From positions 96,380 through 160,379 of the IMG/VR virus record IMGVR_UViG_3300027861_000012: 64,000 nucleotides of DNA; one strand, given 5' to 3'. The stretch's first letter is position 1. Each line of letters starts with the position of its first letter. The notes below the pieces were generated by a model that was not told the DNA's origin, ran no database searches, and saw only the letters and a list, made by a program, of their open reading frames with translations. Below, one piece after another: positions 3,001 through 47,532 of the stretch. The DNA is from a virus. Its lineage: Duplodnaviria > Heunggongvirae > Uroviricota > Caudoviricetes. The translations under genes were made by a program, and so were the position numbers.

Positions 3001-4274
3001 TTAGTGTCCGATTCATCTACAAAGTAGATGTAGTTCTCGTATGAATCAACACACAAGCTCAACAGCGATGAGTAGGCAGGGTCATCAAGGATAACTGTTT
3101 CCCCGGTACCATCCAAATTCCCTCTATGGATGGTGTTGTCTGTGATATCGACCCAATAAATCTCATACCGATTAACATGGATGTCGGCATCGGTTGGCTT
3201 GTTACCCGTATCAAACATCGCACGTCGATTGTTTCCGTCAAAGTCCATCCTAATACATTCGTCTTCAGACCACTCCATGACAAACAACCGCTCAGAAGCA
3301 TGGGGGTCAATCCACACCGATGTATCCTGAGTGAAGTCCAGATCATCTGATGGGTGGCGTGTATACACATCGTATCCGCCAGAATTCGTATGCTCGAATG
3401 CAAGGGTGTCATCTACATCAATGGTGTGGACCACCGTGCGTTCCCAGGCACGTTGTAATAGTTGATCCATATCGAGTGTGGAGACCACCGTCTGTTGGTA
3501 CACCAGCGTAGAGGGTTTGTACAGAATGGCCTTCCAACTCTTAGCCAAGCTGTCCTGATCTGAGTCACGGAGTTTTTCGTATCCGGTGCCATAGATAGAG
3601 ACCCGGTAGATATCTCCGTCTGCCTGATCGTAAGTAAAGTACAGATAGTCATCACCAGGATCGTATTCGAGCCGAATGACATTGACACCCGTGGTATCAA
3701 TATCGTACACTAAGGCATTGTTGCCGCCGTCCATGTCACAGACACGAAGCTGGTCACCATTCGAGTAGTAGATTTTGTCATTATCAATATCCACTGAGAC
3801 CGATGGTCCGTCTGTGGTGCCCGTGATACCGGTGACGATATTCGCCAGGTTGGTACCATCCAGGTCACATGTCCGGATGCTATTATTAGTCGAATCGCAG
3901 AGCACCAATTTACCCAACGCTGGGTGGATGCCCATTTCACTGATCCAGGCCAATCCTGAAGTCAAGACATCAGTTGCACCGGTGCCATCTAAGGCAGCCT
4001 TGCGAATCTTAGCCGGACTGTATTCGTACCAATAGACTTCATCCGCACCAGGATTCACTGTGATACCAACAGGACCAGCCGTACTTGTATCCAACCAGAC
4101 TTCGCTGTTGCCACCATCAAGATCACATCGCTTGATCTCTTGATTGGCATAATGTGTCCAGTAAATCTTGTCATTGGTGAGGTCTATCGCGGCATCCTGG
4201 CAGCCGTCTACACCACTGCTGAGAATCACAGCAGCATAGGCACTATCAGGTTTGAGGCGTAGAATCTTACCCAT
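1..4274 (-). CDS. Second giant fibre-like protein, partial (>=1424 aa, open at window edge): two YWTD-like beta-propellers then 20-aa stalk repeats
   Basis: Not in ORF track because it has no stop in the window. Hand translation from ATG 4274 (SD AAGGA, 2 nt after the TAA of the 5090-aa gene) gives MGKILRLKPDS...IDLTNDKIYWTHYANQEIKRCDLDGGNSEV...EIYWVDITDNTIHRGNLDGTGE...QDTVWPRDASSTLDLDD... with no stop down to position 1. Confidence 0.9.
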   Translation of the reverse strand, partial: MGKILRLKPDSAYAAVILSSGVDGCQDAAIDLTNDKIYWTHYANQEIKRCDLDGGNSEVWLDTSTAGPVGITVNPGADEVYWYEYSPAKIRKAALDGTGATDVLTSGLAWISEMGIHPALGKLVLCDSTNNSIRTCDLDGTNLANIVTGITGTTDGPSVSVDIDNDKIYYSNGDQLRVCDMDGGNNALVYDIDTTGVNVIRLEYDPGDDYLYFTYDQADGDIYRVSIYGTGYEKLRDSDQDSLAKSWKAILYKPSTLVYQQTVVSTLDMDQLLQRAWERTVVHTIDVDDTLAFEHTNSGGYDVYTRHPSDDLDFTQDTSVWIDPHASERLFVMEWSEDECIRMDFDGNNRRAMFDTGNKPTDADIHVNRYEIYWVDITDNTIHRGNLDGTGETVILDDPAYSSLLSLCVDSYENYIYFVDESDTNNKVYRMDLDGSNITLILEATVDDVVRPYGLAAYNNQLYFCDYSAHIVKRCDYDGSNVTDLITGWNLPQAICIDRQNERIFFGRGISGGDIYVANIDGSGDTVLTDANLPDDLCYNEDNDTLYWTSGRDVKKTVVSTGITTTIHHGVFGKEYHGIDYFPFRNFIPRGMQSPLRLRHAATGETYIQGIGTSSLDWTSTAEAGFIITLNAPSGISVSDTLDYTGIFPRTLTSTITVSDVVGLNWILTLGPSSTITFVSVGDTTHVRSTSDSDSLDLSHDLDPTWILQLSGSSTIVCSDIATRIRIGSRTATNTIDISDTLDLLKAVSADSSGTLVISDNCVETTIWLRTPTHAIPLDDDLNVGYSLQRASSSTIDWVSVSAYAGVFNRTTSDTISASDVASFVQTVARTASDTVVLTSTASQLAVFARPVTTEIDLTSTGDRNIIVTYDLSDTITLTQAAIFDTTWVRSAVNALSLSHVLDAGWVLNKSLQDTLVLDSEADRLAVLGKSITSTLSISDLLEVNWAWPLASSSTLDISGTATQDTVWPRDASSTLDLDDTLARTALVSPSASSTLDLSDLSVLTVIWSLSSADDIDLTSTAAQTPIYLRPATDTMSLDDSADRIATVSHTASSTISLTGTASETSVLNLAASDTLVLDDDPDRLIVLNLSLTSTITLTSTGYEETEFTYSITHTLSISDAASRIATLQKDVSATLALSDTAGQDTVWPRSASGALLLSDDMSAGFVLTKDLSNTLVLTGTPDRIATVQKASSHTLDLTSIGDRNIVASKSATSVLVPSVSATQDTVWPRTASSIIDAVSQAALAFTLQKDVTDTLSLSNVASRVHVALRFSTSTLALTHSDTVLVVWDRALSSTIDLSDSLGRVATLGKSLLSSIDLDDAIDRVAIVQHSGTSTLIVTDISDGGKIVTATLSSTIVIGDDLDLGMVLGKSITDTLAPSDSASRVLVNVEAVTHNLSVSDTAAQLGIWVRSASNTLSMTYEVGV

Positions 4275-4276
4275 GA

Positions 4277-7200
4277 TTATTCCTTATCAATTACGTAGAG
4301 GCTACCGGACTCAGGCGGCTCAATGACAGCCGAGGCCGATGACGCTGGCACCAAAGTATCTTCTGCATCACCATCATATGTCCTTGGCCAGACACGGTGG
4401 GCCCAAGTCAGGTCATCCGAAGCTGACCGAGCAAAGGTCATTGAGCGGGTTGCAGTTTGTGTCAAGTCTCCGGTATTGTCTGCCGACTCGACTGAGGCCA
4501 GGTTGAATGTACTCTCCTGGGTTAGATCAACCACATTTTCGGTGACTCGTGGGTGTGTTGTGAAGTCGTCACCAGCATAAACGATACTGACGGCCATGTT
4601 GTCATCAAGCGTGAATGAAACCTCTGTGTCTTCAACGATAGAATCCCATGCACGACTCTGCCATGTGAGTGTATCATCAGAATCTCGGTTGTACACGCTA
4701 CTGGCCAGCGACAGGGCTTGACCAAGGGCGGCTGTCGATTCCAGGGCTTGAAGGGCCACAGTCGTTTCACCTGGGAGACTCGACAATGTGATGGTGTTGT
4801 CCCCAGTTCGATTCCTTGTGATGTTGAAGCTAGCCGCACTGGAGAGAGTCAGATCACTGGTACCACTGCGTTGGAGCGAATAACCAAGATTCAAATCGTC
4901 GGTCAATTCGATAGCGTTTGTCAGGTCACGAGCCCAAACAGTATCTTGTGTTGCCACATCGCTGGCAGCGATTTCGTGATCAACACTTCTTGGTGACACT
5001 ACGGCCTCGTTAGCACTGTCATCCATCACAAGGGTGTTCTCAGCATATCGGTCCCAAACTACATCGAAGACACTTGCATCTGACAGTATCAACGTGTTCG
5101 CAGCATTGCGGATAACTTCAACGACAATTATGTCGTCCAAATCAATGCTAGAACTTGACGCGGGACTGATGAAGTGTTCGTAGCTCAGCACTTCGTCTAG
5201 TGTCAACGTTGATTCGATAGACTTGTTAAGGATGCTGGTAAGATCAAGATCATCGTCTAGCGTCATGGTATGTGCAGCAAACCTACTGAAGATTGGCTGC
5301 TTGTCGCTAATACTGGTGAGCGTGAAAGTCGAAGACGCATCGCGGTCACGGAAAGTAATACTGGTAGCGACATCGCCAACAGTGAGATCAGTATCCAAAT
5401 CTCGCGTTAGTGTGTAACCAAGATTGAGTGCTTGGGCCAGATCAGTGGAATCCTCCCCGAATCTTGGTAACACTAACGTTTCACCACTGCTGTCGGATAG
5501 ATCCAGATCATCAGCAAGTGGTGGCCCCAGAACAAATAAGGTTGCCAACTCATCTGAAATTGTGGCAGCGTGTATGATTACTTCATTGAAATCAGTGGTC
5601 TCATAACCGATTGAATCCAGTTCAACTGTGGTGCTTCCGGCTTGCTGTGAAACGATATTTCGGTCTACAATAGAGACCAGTGTTAGGGTATTGTCGTGGG
5701 CCAAGGTTACAACAACGTTGCGGTCACCAATACTGGACAGATCAATTGCGTTACTGGCATACCGTAGATATACCATATCCGCGACGGCCAGACCAGACGC
5801 TGTCAGTGTATTGCTTAATGACTTACCAAGGGTTGCAATCCGTGTAGTGACATCACTTAGTGTAACAGCATTGGTAGCACTTCGGCCCAAGATGGAAGTT
5901 TCTGCACCTGTATCCGTGAGGTCAAGATCAGACTCACTCCATCGTTGCCTTACTGTAATGGCACCTACGGCTGTGTCCGCCAGGTCAATATCACTGGTAC
6001 TACCCTCAAGGGAGAGGAATGCCTCATCAACAACACTGGAGATGGTCAAGGTTGAAGTATCATCGGTTGTTCGGATTCGGTTTTGGGTGACGCTGTCGGA
6101 AAGATCAATGTTCGCGGTCACTTCTTTCAATGGTACAAAGACAACTGTGGATTCGTCACCCAGAGATAGCGAGACCGCAGTTGATCGTGGCCATACGGTG
6201 TCCTGCCCGGCAATGGCCGACAGGTCCAGAGTATCACTGCTGCTTCTGGGTGCCACATGTCCATAGACAAGTGAGTGTACGAAATCGAGATCACCTAGCA
6301 TCTGACGGGTTCTGGTGTAACCCGTGTATGGTGCAATGGCCAGACCCCATGGTCGTTGGTATTCGGTACCAGCCGACACTTGATTATGTGTATGAGGCGC
6401 AGTAATCTTGACACTGTGCAGCCCGATGTAGGTCCCGGCCGCAGCGTTGTCTTGGTAACAGACTGTATAGATCGAGTCGTTTACAGCGTTGAAGGCAATG
6501 TGCTCGAAGTGTCCGGACGGGATCGAAATCTCAGTAATCACCCATGCACTGGGCCCATCAACGTCGGCATAAAATGCCCGCGCGTAACCCGTGGAAAGTG
6601 ATTTGTACAACCAGAACAACCTACCATTGGTTTCGTCATAGTTCAGGTGAATCCAAGGTCTGGTCCCTGGGAAGTCGGTCAGATTACCAAGACGCACAAT
6701 TTCTGCGTTAGTATCCAAGTTCTTTTCAACGATGCGTCCGGTTGGGGATCTATCTGCGTACCACAATCTCCTGTTCGCACCATCACCTGCAAGATCGCTC
6801 GCATAGCCCGAGCCAAAATTCACGTCAGGATTCACGTTGTCCAAATCCCATATCGACCCATAACCGTTATTGAACAGAATAGCCGGAGCATGAATGGCAT
6901 ACATATTGTTGTTCTGTGAATCAACAAACGATCTACTGGCACGATAGACAGGCGGGTTGGGATACACGTAGAAGTTGGCACCGTTTAGATCGCATCCAAA
7001 CTCGTAGCCAAAGACATATGATCCGAAGTAAATACGATCATCAACAATGCCAAGATCCCAGGTATCGTTGGGATAGGCTTGTGACCCGGCTGGGTACGGA
7101 AGATCATTCAATTCAATTGCTGTTTCTTTACCGGTGAGGTCTGGCCTGAATTTCACAATTCGTGAGTGTAGCGAATCGCCTTCATAACCTTCACCTGTGT

Positions 7201-44382: not shown

Positions 44383-44425
44383 GTTTGTTTACCTCCTCGG
44401 GTAATGCTAGTTGGTAGTTTGATGT

Positions 44426-44689
44426 TTATGGTGTCGTAACGTCAACATCGACTGAATGTGTCATCAGATTGGGGCGTTCCCAAACACTGTTTTTCAGGAC
44501 CCAGCCTTCACCGGCACGTTGATCATCAACGGACGGGTAGCATTCGATTAGTTCCACGGTACCGGCTGGCAGAACTACATCGATTTGCCGAATCTCGTTG
44601 GCAAACGCCTCTACCACTACCGGAGCCTCACCGGCAACTTTGATCTCGACACGTACAGTACCATCATATTCTGGGAGTGCAATAATCAT
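44426..44689 (-). CDS. Hypothetical protein, paralog of 43921..44382 (87 aa)
   Basis: VEAFANEIRQIDVVLPAG vs CSAFAAEIREVEVAIPAG; DDQRAGEGW vs DQGKPTDTGW. Confidence 0.65.
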   Translation of the reverse strand: MIIALPEYDGTVRVEIKVAGEAPVVVEAFANEIRQIDVVLPAGTVELIECYPSVDDQRAGEGWVLKNSVWERPNLMTHSVDVDVTTP

Positions 44690-44692
44690 GAT

Positions 44693-44995
44693 TTACCCTT
44701 CAGTGGGGTCATCGAGAAAGGCCAACAACATGAGAATGAAGCGAATAATCTCAGGGAGATTCTCCACAATCCAATCAACCCATGCTCGCCAATCAATGTC
44801 AATTTCTGTTAATTCGAGTTCTAACCGAACCCACTTCTCTACTTTGAGAAGTACGTTGATCATCCGACCCGAACCTGGGTCAACTCGCATGGGCTGATCA
44901 ATGACCCGTTGAAGCAACCGAAGACGCGCCCGTGGGAACATCTTGTTACGACTCGCCTGTAGGCGAGCTTCTTGCAAAGCTACTTTGAATGTCAT
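44693..44995 (-). CDS. Protein with amphipathic hydrophobic C-terminus (100 aa)
   Basis: ATG 1 nt after the thioredoxin stop; C-terminal IDWRAWVDWIVENLPEIIRFILMLLAFL. Confidence 0.65.
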   Translation of the reverse strand: MTFKVALQEARLQASRNKMFPRARLRLLQRVIDQPMRVDPGSGRMINVLLKVEKWVRLELELTEIDIDWRAWVDWIVENLPEIIRFILMLLAFLDDPTEG

Positions 44996-44996
44996 G

Positions 44997-45593
44997 TTAC
45001 CAGATGTCATAGTCAGGTTCCTCGGGATCGGGTGGAGTCGGTGGAGTCGGTGGTACATCAGTGGGCTTCTTGAGATATTTCTTCAGAGTTTTGCTGTCCA
45101 TAGTTCCAACAAACTGTTTCACGACTCGTGGTGTTGTTTCTGTTTCTTCAAAGATGATGGTCTGTGGAATTTGGGCCACGTTATACTTCTTCACCATCTC
45201 TGAGTGTTCATCCGTATTGATTAAGGTAACCTTGTATCCAGCTTTCTTCAGGCTCGCCGCGATGGTTTTCATCGTAGTACACTTGGTACACCAGGGAGCC
45301 CAGAAAAGGAACATTTCGTTGGTTACTGGTTTGACCTCTTCCCTGACAAAAAAGGGTCGGTGGGTTTCTCCAACTTCGGATACCCCTCGATGTCCATGTA
45401 CTTGTTGGCCAGTCCCGTCATCTCGGCCATCCGGCGTACCCATTTGATTTTCTTGCCCTTGCTGATATCGAGTAACAAGGTGCGTAGCCATTTCACCAGG
45501 TCTCGCCAGAGGCCCAGTAATTTGAGTTTCTTGCCCATAGTAGACTCCTATGATCAAGCCAAGGGTCAACAGTAGCAGTGTTCGTTTGAACAT
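44997..45593 (-). CDS. Exported/anchored thioredoxin-family protein (198 aa)
   Basis: Signal-like MFKRTLLLLTLGLIIGVYY; FWAPWCTKC CxxC; INTDEH..MVKKYNVAQIPQTII cis-Pro loop. Confidence 0.85.
   Translation of the reverse strand: MFKRTLLLLTLGLIIGVYYGQETQITGPLARPGEMATHLVTRYQQGQENQMGTPDGRDDGTGQQVHGHRGVSEVGETHRPFFVREEVKPVTNEMFLFWAPWCTKCTTMKTIAASLKKAGYKVTLINTDEHSEMVKKYNVAQIPQTIIFEETETTPRVVKQFVGTMDSKTLKKYLKKPTDVPPTPPTPPDPEEPDYDIW
45323..45538 (-). CDS. Nested +1-frame ORF inside thioredoxin gene (71 aa, amphipathic basic)
   Basis: Own SD AGGAG 6 nt before ATG; G/C-ending codons dominate in this frame; C CCT TTT slippery heptamer near its end. Confidence 0.55.
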   Translation of the reverse strand: MGKKLKLLGLWRDLVKWLRTLLLDISKGKKIKWVRRMAEMTGLANKYMDIEGYPKLEKPTDPFLSGKRSNQ

Positions 45594-45595
45594 TG

Positions 45596-46597
45596 TCACC
45601 AAATCCTGTAATCGTCGATGTCCTGTCTAGGATAACCAACGTAACCACTCAAAGCAAAGCTATCACCTTGCTTGAGTGCCATTTCGATGTTTTTCGCATC
45701 GGCCCAAAATGAACCTTCAGGTTGTTCGTGTCGCGTTGGCCCGCTTACCCAGTTGTGTCCCCATGAATTTTGGATACAACCACCTTTACGTTCCGATTGA
45801 TTATCGATTGCAATCAGAAGCATGGCGTGCATCCATGGTCGTCCGCGCCTCAAGAAACCAGCTTTGTCTCGTTTGTTGGTATAACCAATTGAACTACAGA
45901 GTGTAACTGGGTAGCCGTTTGCAACACAGTCACAAGCTTCGTCCCAATTGGTGACCAACTTTGCTGTCCGTACCGGATGCAACTTGGTCAGTGGTTCTAA
46001 ATCATTGGGGACACCCTTTGCCCCCAATTCGCGTGCCTTGAAACCATTGTAGAATGTGAAGTCATACTTCCCATTCAAGTAAGGTTGTCTCAGCAGTGAG
46101 CCGTATTGCTCACAGTAGTCTTTGGCCCACGTACCCATTGAGCCATCACCACGCAGGCCGCCTCCGATTTCAACACGCGAACCAGCGTAAATAATCTCAG
46201 TAGCGGCTTTTGCAATCCACTGCTCTTGGCTATTGAAGAGAGTCATCTGGATTGCTGTTAGCATATCCACGCCGAGTGCCCATGCATGTGAGACACAGTC
46301 ACCAATCTCTTGGATATGCGGTACTAGCGGCCCACCAGTGATGTGCTCAAACAGCTTCCAGAGTAAGACTTTCTTGTTACGGCCAGAGCCCTTGATTGCT
46401 TGGTTGTGCTGTGAGAACAGCGGACGATGTGTGTTGTTGAATGCATGTTGCCGAGCAGCCTTGTTGTCCAACCAGCCTGCAAAGATCGGGCTCTTCTGAC
46501 TTTCGGCGGCATAGACTTGCTGCAAGATAGGGTTATTGAAAATGGCACCAAGCGATGCAACCCCAGATGTCTTCAAAAAGTCTCGGCGTGTGAACAT
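45596..46597 (-). CDS. Tat-exported papain-like (C1) cysteine protease (333 aa)
   Basis: Exact Tat consensus TRRDFLK; QEIGDCVS (Cys), WMHAM (His), IQNSWG (Asn). Confidence 0.85.
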   Translation of the reverse strand: MFTRRDFLKTSGVASLGAIFNNPILQQVYAAESQKSPIFAGWLDNKAARQHAFNNTHRPLFSQHNQAIKGSGRNKKVLLWKLFEHITGGPLVPHIQEIGDCVSHAWALGVDMLTAIQMTLFNSQEQWIAKAATEIIYAGSRVEIGGGLRGDGSMGTWAKDYCEQYGSLLRQPYLNGKYDFTFYNGFKARELGAKGVPNDLEPLTKLHPVRTAKLVTNWDEACDCVANGYPVTLCSSIGYTNKRDKAGFLRRGRPWMHAMLLIAIDNQSERKGGCIQNSWGHNWVSGPTRHEQPEGSFWADAKNIEMALKQGDSFALSGYVGYPRQDIDDYRIW

Positions 46598-46608
46598 TCT
46601 CTACTCCT

Positions 46609-47532
46609 TTATCGACTGACAGCTTCCTCTTCCGGTGACGCCCCGGCTTTGATGATATCCTTCTTGTTGGAAGGACCAGCATACTTGTTCAATGCCATCC
46701 CGATCTTCTTCCACAGCTTCTCGTGGTCATCCGCAGTTTTCAGAGTACCTGCTTGGGAACGTGCAACAATTTCAGTCTGGAGGTTTTCCATAAATGGTGT
46801 CCAAACCTCAGACCTGTGCCCCAAGGCCGTTCGACTTGATTCCTTAGTAGCAGCCGCAACCTTGTTGACTGGAATCACTCCGGCTTTGATTTGAGCCGCA
46901 ATACTGTTGAAGCTTTGACCCAAACGAGCACAGTCACCTTTATTGGCGCTCATTGAATCCAGCCAGTACGCAACCTTGGTTTCAATCGGGGCGTTTGGAT
47001 TAACCGGTTCTGGATTCGGTGGATTGGGCCCTGGCGCGGGTGGATCAGGATACTGATTCAATACGCGGATCACAATGATCTTGTGGTCCAGTTCCTCCGC
47101 TGAGGCACAACATGACACAAAGAAGGTATAGTCGCCGGGAACACCGCTGGAGAATACGGCAATTTGGCCATCATTGAATACACGGAAATTCTTTGTCTTC
47201 GGCATCACGCTCCATTTGTATTTTGTTCCAGAACTCTGCGTCACATCAATGAATACCAGTTGTCCGATTTTGACTTCAAGTTCAGTTTCGACAACCAGCA
47301 TCGAATCCTCATCTTGCATGACCAATGACAAATCAGCATCGGTATCAACAATCTGTGCGCGAACTGTCATAGATGACGAAGTAAGGATTTTCGGTTGCTG
47401 TGTCAACAGTATTTGGGCATCCGACACCGCTGTCTTTGGCGGTACTTCAGTTGGGTAATAGTTTGAAACTGTAAAGATGCTGGCAACCACCAACATCACA
47501 CTGAAAATCGTAGTTGTGATTGCTCTTTTCAT
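46609..47532 (-). CDS. Exported protein: signal anchor, PKD/Ig-like domain, Pro-rich linker, helical C-domain (307 aa)
   Basis: Hydrophobic N-terminus; YKWSV...AVFSSGVPGDYTFFVSC; PDPPAPGPNPPNPEP. Confidence 0.7.
   Translation of the reverse strand: MKRAITTTIFSVMLVVASIFTVSNYYPTEVPPKTAVSDAQILLTQQPKILTSSSMTVRAQIVDTDADLSLVMQDEDSMLVVETELEVKIGQLVFIDVTQSSGTKYKWSVMPKTKNFRVFNDGQIAVFSSGVPGDYTFFVSCCASAEELDHKIIVIRVLNQYPDPPAPGPNPPNPEPVNPNAPIETKVAYWLDSMSANKGDCARLGQSFNSIAAQIKAGVIPVNKVAAATKESSRTALGHRSEVWTPFMENLQTEIVARSQAGTLKTADDHEKLWKKIGMALNKYAGPSNKKDIIKAGASPEEEAVSR

Follow-up and report, generated by a model that had tools for sequence, protein, structure and literature searches.

A reading frame nested in a phage thioredoxin gene

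We analysed a 64,000-nucleotide (nt) stretch of DNA (hereafter the window; positions 96,380 to 160,379) of IMGVR_UViG_3300027861_000012, a 177,656-base pair (bp) IMG/VR virus record of a marine tailed phage of ~178 kilobases (kb) that occurs in seawater metagenomes. On the minus strand of the window, an open reading frame (ORF) of 198 amino acids (aa) that includes a thioredoxin domain wholly contains a second ORF of 71 aa, which is read in the +1 frame relative to it from an initiation site 55 nt away (Table 1). The thioredoxin ORF starts 2 nt past the stop codon of an upstream gene for a papain-fold cysteine peptidase. We call the nested gene LWR, a label coined here from the conserved Leu-Trp-Arg start of an otherwise unnamed protein family. 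An earlier model-made reading of the sequence (the original prediction) had described a gene within a gene joined to a −1 slippery site, and its sequence features (both ORFs, the AGGAG, the heptamer, a GGAG upstream of it and the two arms of a possible stem) were all found in place when we re-read them from the sequence. The codon contrast that it described is also present, with third-position GC at 0.74 for the nested frame versus 0.35 for that of thioredoxin, in which a 70-residue linker is of low complexity, and the nested peptide is, as predicted, basic and amphipathic (isoelectric point 10.2; hydrophobic moment of the N-terminal helix 0.67).

Table 1 Features of the nested locus and of its two flanking genes, in window coordinates
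Feature	Coordinates	Strand	Source or remark
Long thioredoxin ORF, 198 aa: hydrophobic N-terminal anchor, linker, minimal thioredoxin domain, Pro-rich tail	44997–45593	minus	ORF list
New 5' end of thioredoxin ORF with hydrophobic signal-anchor (residues 1–19)	45537–45593	minus	
AGGAG, Shine-Dalgarno-like site 6 nt 5' of nested ATG	45545–45549	minus	sequence
Nested +1-frame LWR gene, 71 aa, stop codon included	45323–45538	minus	
Thioredoxin-frame linker (~residues 20–90), alternative frame of nested gene	45326–45536	minus	
C_CCT_TTT heptamer in nested frame, within T6 run 45348–45353	45350–45356	minus	window-specific, judged incidental
Met94 codon, candidate reinitiation start of a putative short cytoplasmic thioredoxin	45312–45314	minus	
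Minimal thioredoxin domain with WCTKC active site	45066–45311	minus	
Pro-rich C-terminal tail, last residues D-Y-D-I-W	45000–45065	minus	alignment A2
Upstream partner gene, 333-aa papain-fold cysteine peptidase with twin-arginine signal	45596–46597	minus	
Downstream gene, ~105 aa, hydrophobic C-terminus	44693–45010	minus	ORF list

Conservation of the nested gene was assessed across five distinct loci, the window and contigs L001, L002, L003 and L004, after leaving out duplicates (L005 is the same as L002, and L006 and L007 the same as L001). The nested ORF is open in 5/5 loci, with the same ATG and the same TAA stop position, and in-frame stops precede the ATG in all five sequences. A GGAG or GGGG lies 6–8 nt 5' of the ATG in every locus, at a place where the thioredoxin-frame residues vary, so that both the Shine-Dalgarno (SD) element and the start codon, which the original prediction had proposed to look for in homologs, are kept in 5/5. 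The ATG is retained in L004 despite a Tyr to Asp change in the thioredoxin frame, the TAA sits within a conserved K-P-V-T of that frame, and the indels that separate lineages within the nested gene are whole codons.

Substitution patterns point the same way. In pairwise Nei-Gojobori comparisons over the overlap, the ratio of nonsynonymous to synonymous substitution rates (dN/dS) was 0.10–0.21 in the nested frame, compared to 0.8–2.0 when these bases are read in the frame of thioredoxin; the nested values match that of the non-overlapped thioredoxin domain (~0.11). Variable columns fell at nested codon positions 1, 2 and 3 in 28, 21 and 41 of 60 cases, respectively (chi-square p = 0.001). This is how a coding sequence normally varies when read in the nested frame; read in that of thioredoxin, the usual order is inverted. 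The homolog alignment suggested in the original prediction thus places purifying selection on the nested frame. Judged by conservation that exceeds chance, the nested +1-frame ORF is a real gene.

The outer ORF encodes a recognizable thioredoxin. Residues 95–176 match Pfam PF00085 (Thioredoxin; E = 1.7e-11, 44.5 bits versus a cut-off of 23.5), and PDB profile matches to thioredoxins begin at residue ~93. The active site, W-C-T-K-C, occupies residues 101–105, with both cysteines invariant, and is preceded by a strand (residues 94–98) and followed by a helix (residues 106–117) in the AlphaFold2 (AF2) model, which has the beta-alpha-beta-alpha-beta-beta-alpha order of a minimal thioredoxin fold over residues 94–174. 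The ORF shares 49–55% identity with its homologs P0002–P0004 and that of L001. Its N-terminal segment is hydrophobic (Kyte-Doolittle maximum 1.77 over residues 1–17), a property found in all 5 homologs at a dN/dS of 0.2–0.6, and all six overprinted loci combine a hydrophobic N-terminus with an ATG next to the stop codon of the peptidase gene, the sixth being the more distant L011, which has a Sec-like signal peptide where the window clade has its hydrophobic segment. The linker between anchor and domain is predicted with very low confidence (AF2 predicted local distance difference test (pLDDT) score 25–31 over residues 50–90) and was found only within the window clade when the full-length ORF was used as query.

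The thioredoxin frame has nevertheless been kept free of stops across the whole nested gene. When the LWR protein was held fixed and synonymous codons were redrawn from the phage's own usage, the thioredoxin frame came out stop-free in 0.03–2.9% of trials per genome (0.1% in L011). Stops in this frame arise from T-ending LWR codons in what we term risky contexts, namely, codons followed by one that starts with AA, AG or GA. In the phage's long genes 27% of risky-context codons end in T, compared to 0/23 in the window LWR (P = 6e-4) and 0/83 in the LWR genes of four lineages (binomial P ~3e-12 versus 27%). The bias of the nested frame towards G/C-ending codons is therefore largely explained by avoidance of T-ending codons that would give thioredoxin-frame stops, and this avoidance, together with the conserved hydrophobic N-terminus, shows that the frame starting at 45593, across the linker and into the thioredoxin domain, is selected for translation. 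The linker itself appears nearly free to vary in sequence and to be selected mainly to stay open. Both frames are under selection, the nested frame at a dN/dS of 0.10–0.21 and the thioredoxin frame in being kept stop-free.

LWR relatives and three gene arrangements

A profile built from the five nested proteins and searched against 1.84 billion representatives matched 26 proteins at E ≤ 0.001, most of them stand-alone. One of these (P0005) is L001's own nested protein, and a second (P0006), a 2055-aa tandem-repeat protein that matched only through 33 weak repeats, was judged spurious; the remaining 24, stand-alone or fused, had E-values of 2.9e-11 to 5.5e-4. These homologs are mostly 62–131 aa long and were matched from their first residues onward. 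Their N-termini have the pattern L-W-R-x-L-V-x-W-L-R in common, after which come I-x-W and a second helix (alignment A4); they also share a Pro-rich stretch, often with a P-D-Y-D-L-like motif, and a basic tail. The nested protein is a member of this family by its profile match and by its place between the peptidase and thioredoxin genes, and the existence of stand-alone relatives, beside its conservation in 5/5 loci and its low dN/dS, bears out the gene-within-gene arrangement that had been proposed from the window sequence.

The AF2 model of the window LWR has two helices (residues 3–26 and 30–47) at a pLDDT of 62. Searches of the nested protein and its homologs against Pfam and PHROGs gave no match, the features search of the ESM Atlas yielded nothing usable for the nested protein, and Foldseek comparison of its model to viral structures gave no match at E ≤ 0.001, the last of which is expected because the pLDDT is only 62. 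Two candidate identities were rejected: a twin-arginine translocation (Tat) signal, suggested by W-R-R-F in some homologs, because the twin arginine is not conserved, and a lipoprotein or spanin, because the window peptide has neither a cysteine nor a signal peptide. Consistent with the latter, the window LWR contains 0 cysteines and no hydrophobic signal (Kyte-Doolittle maximum 0.90).

We inspected the neighbourhood on six contigs of LWR homologs, most of which are short and show part of the gene order only, and found LWR and thioredoxin in three architectures. In the separate form (L010, L013 and the contig of P0028), an 82–90-aa minimal thioredoxin gene comes directly after LWR, its start overlapping the LWR stop region, as ATGA in L010 and L013; in these two, for which DNA was at hand, several stops interrupt the thioredoxin frame 5' of its ATG. 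In the fused form, a single 228-aa protein (P0016; L009:5001–5687) consists of an LWR N-domain, a Ser/Pro/Gly linker, a Cys-rich segment with seven cysteines in ~25 residues and a thioredoxin domain. A search for further fusions among longer proteins recovered P0022 alone and missed the known fusion P0016.

The nested form is found in the window clade and in the more distant L011. Here, no stop interrupts the thioredoxin frame anywhere along the LWR gene, and the long ORF begins with a hydrophobic segment from an ATG at, or ≤5 nt from, the peptidase stop codon. In L011 a 177-aa ORF (3964–4497) combines a Sec-like signal peptide with a thioredoxin domain and carries in its +1 frame a 76-aa LWR gene (4001–4231). 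Public gene calls split this locus into LWR and an 89-aa thioredoxin; at the other loci they list only the long thioredoxin ORF, except in L001, where the nested ORF was called (P0005).

Origin of the overlap and competing explanations

We consider it likely that this locus is dual-coding, with LWR and an anchor-linker-thioredoxin protein made by independent initiation on one mRNA, that the thioredoxin frame was extended 5' over an older LWR gene and that no programmed frameshift is involved. As most relatives suggest, LWR would ancestrally have lain between the gene for a Tat-signal peptidase and a minimal thioredoxin gene of 82–90 aa. The thioredoxin frame, which is −1 relative to LWR, would then have been extended 5' through the entire LWR gene until it reached a new ATG beside the peptidase stop codon, as in the window clade and L011, and this extension would have added a hydrophobic signal-anchor and a spacer of ~70 residues that is predicted to be disordered. 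One late mRNA would now yield two proteins, the anchored thioredoxin initiated at 45593 and a cytoplasmic LWR initiated at 45538 from its own SD. On comparative grounds, origin of the two products by independent initiation is well supported. Since positive residues precede the hydrophobic segment, the anchored protein is predicted to adopt an N-in/C-out topology, which would place its redox domain in the periplasm alongside the Tat-exported cysteine peptidase.

The overlap probably arose as the thioredoxin gene grew backwards over its upstream neighbour, gaining an export anchor. LWR is taken as the older frame because it is more widely distributed, folds as helices and is under purifying selection, and the 5' extension as the younger because it is restricted to one clade, predicted to be disordered and evolving at a dN/dS of ~1 or more. 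The distribution of the two is consistent with this order, which we infer rather than observe: LWR stands alone in other phages, and the thioredoxin frame over LWR is closed in L010 and L013. By this route, a thioredoxin that was cytoplasmic has probably come to share the compartment of the neighbouring, Tat-exported peptidase.

Several points weigh against this account. The evidence base comprises five close sequences, amounting to approximately three lineages, plus L011, and the fused form is known from one metagenomic contig. A stricter permutation, using each gene's own codon set, left the thioredoxin frame open at 0.05–0.66 per genome; this test is weaker because LWR genes have already been purged of T-ending codons, and the open-frame case therefore rests on the combined lineages and on the T-ending-codon test. 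The host is uncultured and no RNA run holding the locus is listed among public runs, and the case for translation of both frames accordingly comes from evolution. Export of the anchored thioredoxin is likewise a prediction from its N-terminal sequence, and Pfam, PHROGs, Atlas and Foldseek all returned no match from which LWR could be assigned a function.

Two alternatives concern Met94 of the thioredoxin frame. Its codon is invariant (alignment A2) and lies 8 nt past the nested TAA (45323–45325) in all five loci, or ten bases if the final A of the stop and the A of the ATG are both counted, and Met94 itself is 7 residues before the WC of WCxxC. In relatives with a stand-alone thioredoxin gene, the start lies about as far from the active site, and its ATG overlaps the LWR stop. 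Because Met94 resembles this ancestral coupled start, a short cytoplasmic form may also arise. A doubtful elaboration would make the overlap a partitioning device: ribosomes ending LWR 8 nt before Met94 would reinitiate there, keeping the ancestral coupling, so that an anchored, exported thioredoxin from the upstream ATG and an LWR-coupled cytoplasmic one from Met94 would put the redox domain on both sides of the membrane at a ratio set by two competing start sites. The C_CCU_UUU heptamer would, in this phage, add a trace of an LWR-thioredoxin fusion, mimicking that of L009.

A simpler version, in which the long ORF is merely open and the only products are LWR and a short cytoplasmic thioredoxin made by termination-reinitiation at Met94, strikes us as quite unlikely. 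Its appeal lies in the relatives whose 82–90-aa thioredoxin has an ATG overlapping the LWR stop, in the invariance and spacing of Met94, in the gene calls that split L011 in exactly this manner and in a linker that evolves as though unconstrained. Against such a reading stand the avoidance of stops (0/83 versus 27%; resampling P 0.0003–0.03), the contrast with the separate-gene loci L010 and L013, which do carry stops in the thioredoxin frame, and the conserved hydrophobic N-terminus and peptidase-abutting ATG of all six overprinted loci. A short form could, moreover, exist in addition to the long one.

The original prediction instead held that C_CCT_TTT makes ribosomes slip by −1, as a programmed event, out of the nested frame and into that of thioredoxin, giving an LWR-thioredoxin fusion without a signal peptide at a set ratio. 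The heptamer does lie in the correct (zero, nested) frame with an open −1 frame beyond it and a GGAG (45368–45371) 11 nt upstream, C_CC.U_UU.U is a frameshift-competent motif in Escherichia coli that exceeds 0.1% without stimulators (PMC4066793), and the product is plausible, given that the natural in-frame fusion in L009 (P0016) indicates that such a protein is viable. Nevertheless, an in-frame X_XXY_YYZ heptamer is absent from the nested ORF of 4/4 homologs, in which the bases aligned to CCCTTTT differ, and chance alone predicts 0.12 such heptamers per 71 codons, given an in-frame frequency of 0.0017 per codon among the long genes of this phage. Across the window, CCCTTTT is found 5 times compared to 7.0 expected. 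The proposed stem (CAGGGA, 45340–45345; TCCCTG, 45292–45297) is 6 bp long and closes a 42-nt loop, and the 80 nt downstream of the heptamer have a minimum free energy of −15.7 kcal/mol versus a shuffle mean of −18.2 (z = +0.81), with 162/200 shuffles folding at least as well. In addition, a shift near codon 62 would need no open thioredoxin frame ahead of it, yet that frame has been kept free of stops over the full length of the nested gene.

With the heptamer absent in 4/4 homologs and a downstream stem that is not significant, the programmed −1 frameshift is not upheld and is, in our assessment, very unlikely; at most, the heptamer causes unprogrammed, low-level slippage in this one phage. 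We judge that the heptamer and its upstream SD-like element fit a chance occurrence and are incidental, and that a textbook slippery heptamer with an upstream SD may be so makes this a cautionary case. Of the three products originally envisaged, an anchored thioredoxin and a small basic peptide translated from its own SD and ATG remain, and the third, a fusion made by frameshift at a set ratio, finds no support, the thioredoxin frame being open from its own upstream ATG.

It is extremely unlikely that the nested ORF is a chance open frame whose G/C-ending codons merely reflect the G-rich first positions of a low-complexity linker. With the thioredoxin protein held fixed, the nested frame did stay open in 16–38% of synonymous resamplings, and a high first-position GC in one frame automatically yields a high third-position GC in the next. 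Yet the ATG, SD and length of the nested ORF are kept in 5/5 loci, its dN/dS is 0.1–0.2 and it has stand-alone homologs (E down to 3e-11) in the same gene neighbourhood, by which the chance-frame explanation is already contradicted. Lastly, the probability that an assembly or homopolymer error, or compensating indels, at the T6 run produced the apparent change of frame is practically negligible: homopolymer runs are error-prone in some sequencing chemistries, but a contig of ~40x depth from a run that may be the source shows no difference anywhere along the stretch, the T6 run is confirmed without differences or gaps by contigs of the independent runs X4 and X5 (identical over 45043–45415 and 45323–45529), and neither frame is disrupted, both aligning collinearly with four homologs in which the T run is absent.

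Known systems and the surrounding module

The dual-coding arrangement of LWR and the anchored thioredoxin invites comparison with several described systems. Rz/Rz1 spanin genes, as in phage lambda, occur in embedded, overlapped and separated architectures. Similarly, LWR is a small gene embedded wholly, in the +1 frame, in the gene of an N-terminally membrane-anchored protein near the terminase genes, and related phages carry alternative architectures of the same pair, so the geometry of the Rz/Rz1 analogy drawn in the original prediction stands. In contrast, the analogy does not extend to the embedded product: LWR lacks a cysteine, lipobox and signal peptide and is not an outer-membrane lipoprotein. 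The outer gene, moreover, does not encode a spanin and ends in a thioredoxin domain instead of a coiled-coil periplasmic domain, the embedded gene is here the presumed older one, with the outer frame over it serving as a spacer, and the LWR/thioredoxin pair also has a fused architecture. To our knowledge, tailed phages offer few cases beyond the spanins in which one gene lies entirely inside another on the same strand and comparative data prove selection on both frames.

Overlapping genes can originate when a gene adopts a start codon farther upstream, or through overprinting (PMC2268670, PMC8227390). As in other overprinted pairs, one frame here is old and widely distributed and the other young, compositionally biased and predicted to be disordered, with both maintained. 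This pair differs in that the new frame gives no new protein but equips a downstream domain that already existed with an export or anchor module, bridging a complete upstream gene. The locus recalls programmed −1 frameshift sites such as those of dnaX and IS911/IS3 by its X_XXY_YYZ heptamer, preceded at 11 nt by an SD-like element, and by its open −1 frame; the differences are that the heptamer here is unconserved, the downstream structure is not significant and the −1 frame has a conserved start of its own. In layout, the long ORF is like TlpA, ResA and DsbE/CcmG, in which an N-terminal anchor or signal precedes a thioredoxin-fold CxxC domain, and that of the phage protein would likewise face the periplasm. 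However, the phage proteins have a minimal fold of ~85 residues without insertions, an active site of the form WC(T/D/A/S)(K/N/G)C and a gene that is phage-encoded and lies beside one for a Tat-signal papain-fold peptidase.

The pair is best regarded as a well-supported new case of nested overlapping genes in tailed phages, one in which the downstream gene was extended 5'. It offers a clear route to nesting, whereby a downstream gene takes an upstream start and reads through its neighbour in another frame, the read-through being turned into an export anchor and spacer. It also illustrates how gene callers miss nested genes or, as at the L011 locus, split them into two short ones. LWR itself is a newly defined family that occurs in separate, fused and nested forms, lies between papain-fold peptidase and thioredoxin genes on the contigs inspected and is found upstream of the large terminase gene where the contig extends that far. 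The pairing of a Tat-exported cysteine peptidase with a thioredoxin upstream of the large terminase represents an uncharacterised phage module, and we regard the LWR module as a good target for functional work. As to what the module might do biochemically, the tight gene coupling and the single fused form suggest that LWR and thioredoxin act together. Complex prediction for the LWR N-domain and the thioredoxin domain scored 0.16, compared to a mark of 0.32, and speaks neither for nor against an interaction.

The fullest gene order observed comprises a gene of ~240–310 aa, a gene of ~330–350 aa, LWR, thioredoxin, a hydrophobic-tailed protein of ~100–112 aa, a protein of ~105 aa and the large terminase. 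The order from the ~330–350-aa gene through LWR to thioredoxin is seen on contigs L009, L011 and P0028; the shorter contigs carry parts of it, LWR with thioredoxin on L010 and L013 and a 350-aa gene ahead of LWR on L012. The large terminase was identified by Pfam or PHROGs in the window and by GpA_ATPase matches on the L003, L009 and P0003 contigs. In the window, the start of the downstream gene overlaps the 3' end of the thioredoxin ORF by 14 nt (44997–45010, minus strand), and the overlap, together with a homologous downstream protein, recurs in L001–L004 and L010. Its retention in L001–L004 indicates that the peptidase, thioredoxin/LWR and downstream genes form a tightly coupled chain. Searches for additional relatives gave no match by blastn of 44400–46700 against phage GenBank sequences, none in a thioredoxin-alignment scan of genome contigs and only the duplicates (L005, L006 and L007) in thioredoxin-locus scans of viral and metagenome sets.

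A gene of 328–350 aa occupies the peptidase position in those relatives whose contigs extend there. The 333-aa window protein matches TAT_signal at E = 2.8e-4, under Pfam's cut-off, and its papain-family fold is indicated by Atlas structural matches to viral clusters (TM 0.85–0.91); it gave no match to the Pfam Peptidase_C1 model, and phmmer against PDB sequences gave nothing meaningful. Its counterparts in L001, L009 and L011 have a Tat-like start and a D-Y ending in common. In the window, the thioredoxin and the peptidase share a C-terminal D-Y-x-I-W (44997–45014 and 45596–45616, minus strand), and the peptidase homologs end in D-Y-I-I-W in L011 and D-Y-L-L-Y in L009. P-D-Y-D-L or S-P-Y-D-x-L is present in the tails of 11/24 LWR homologs and missing from the shortened LWR of the window. 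Perhaps these D-Y tails have a short docking motif in common, one that was transferred from LWR to thioredoxin in the window clade.

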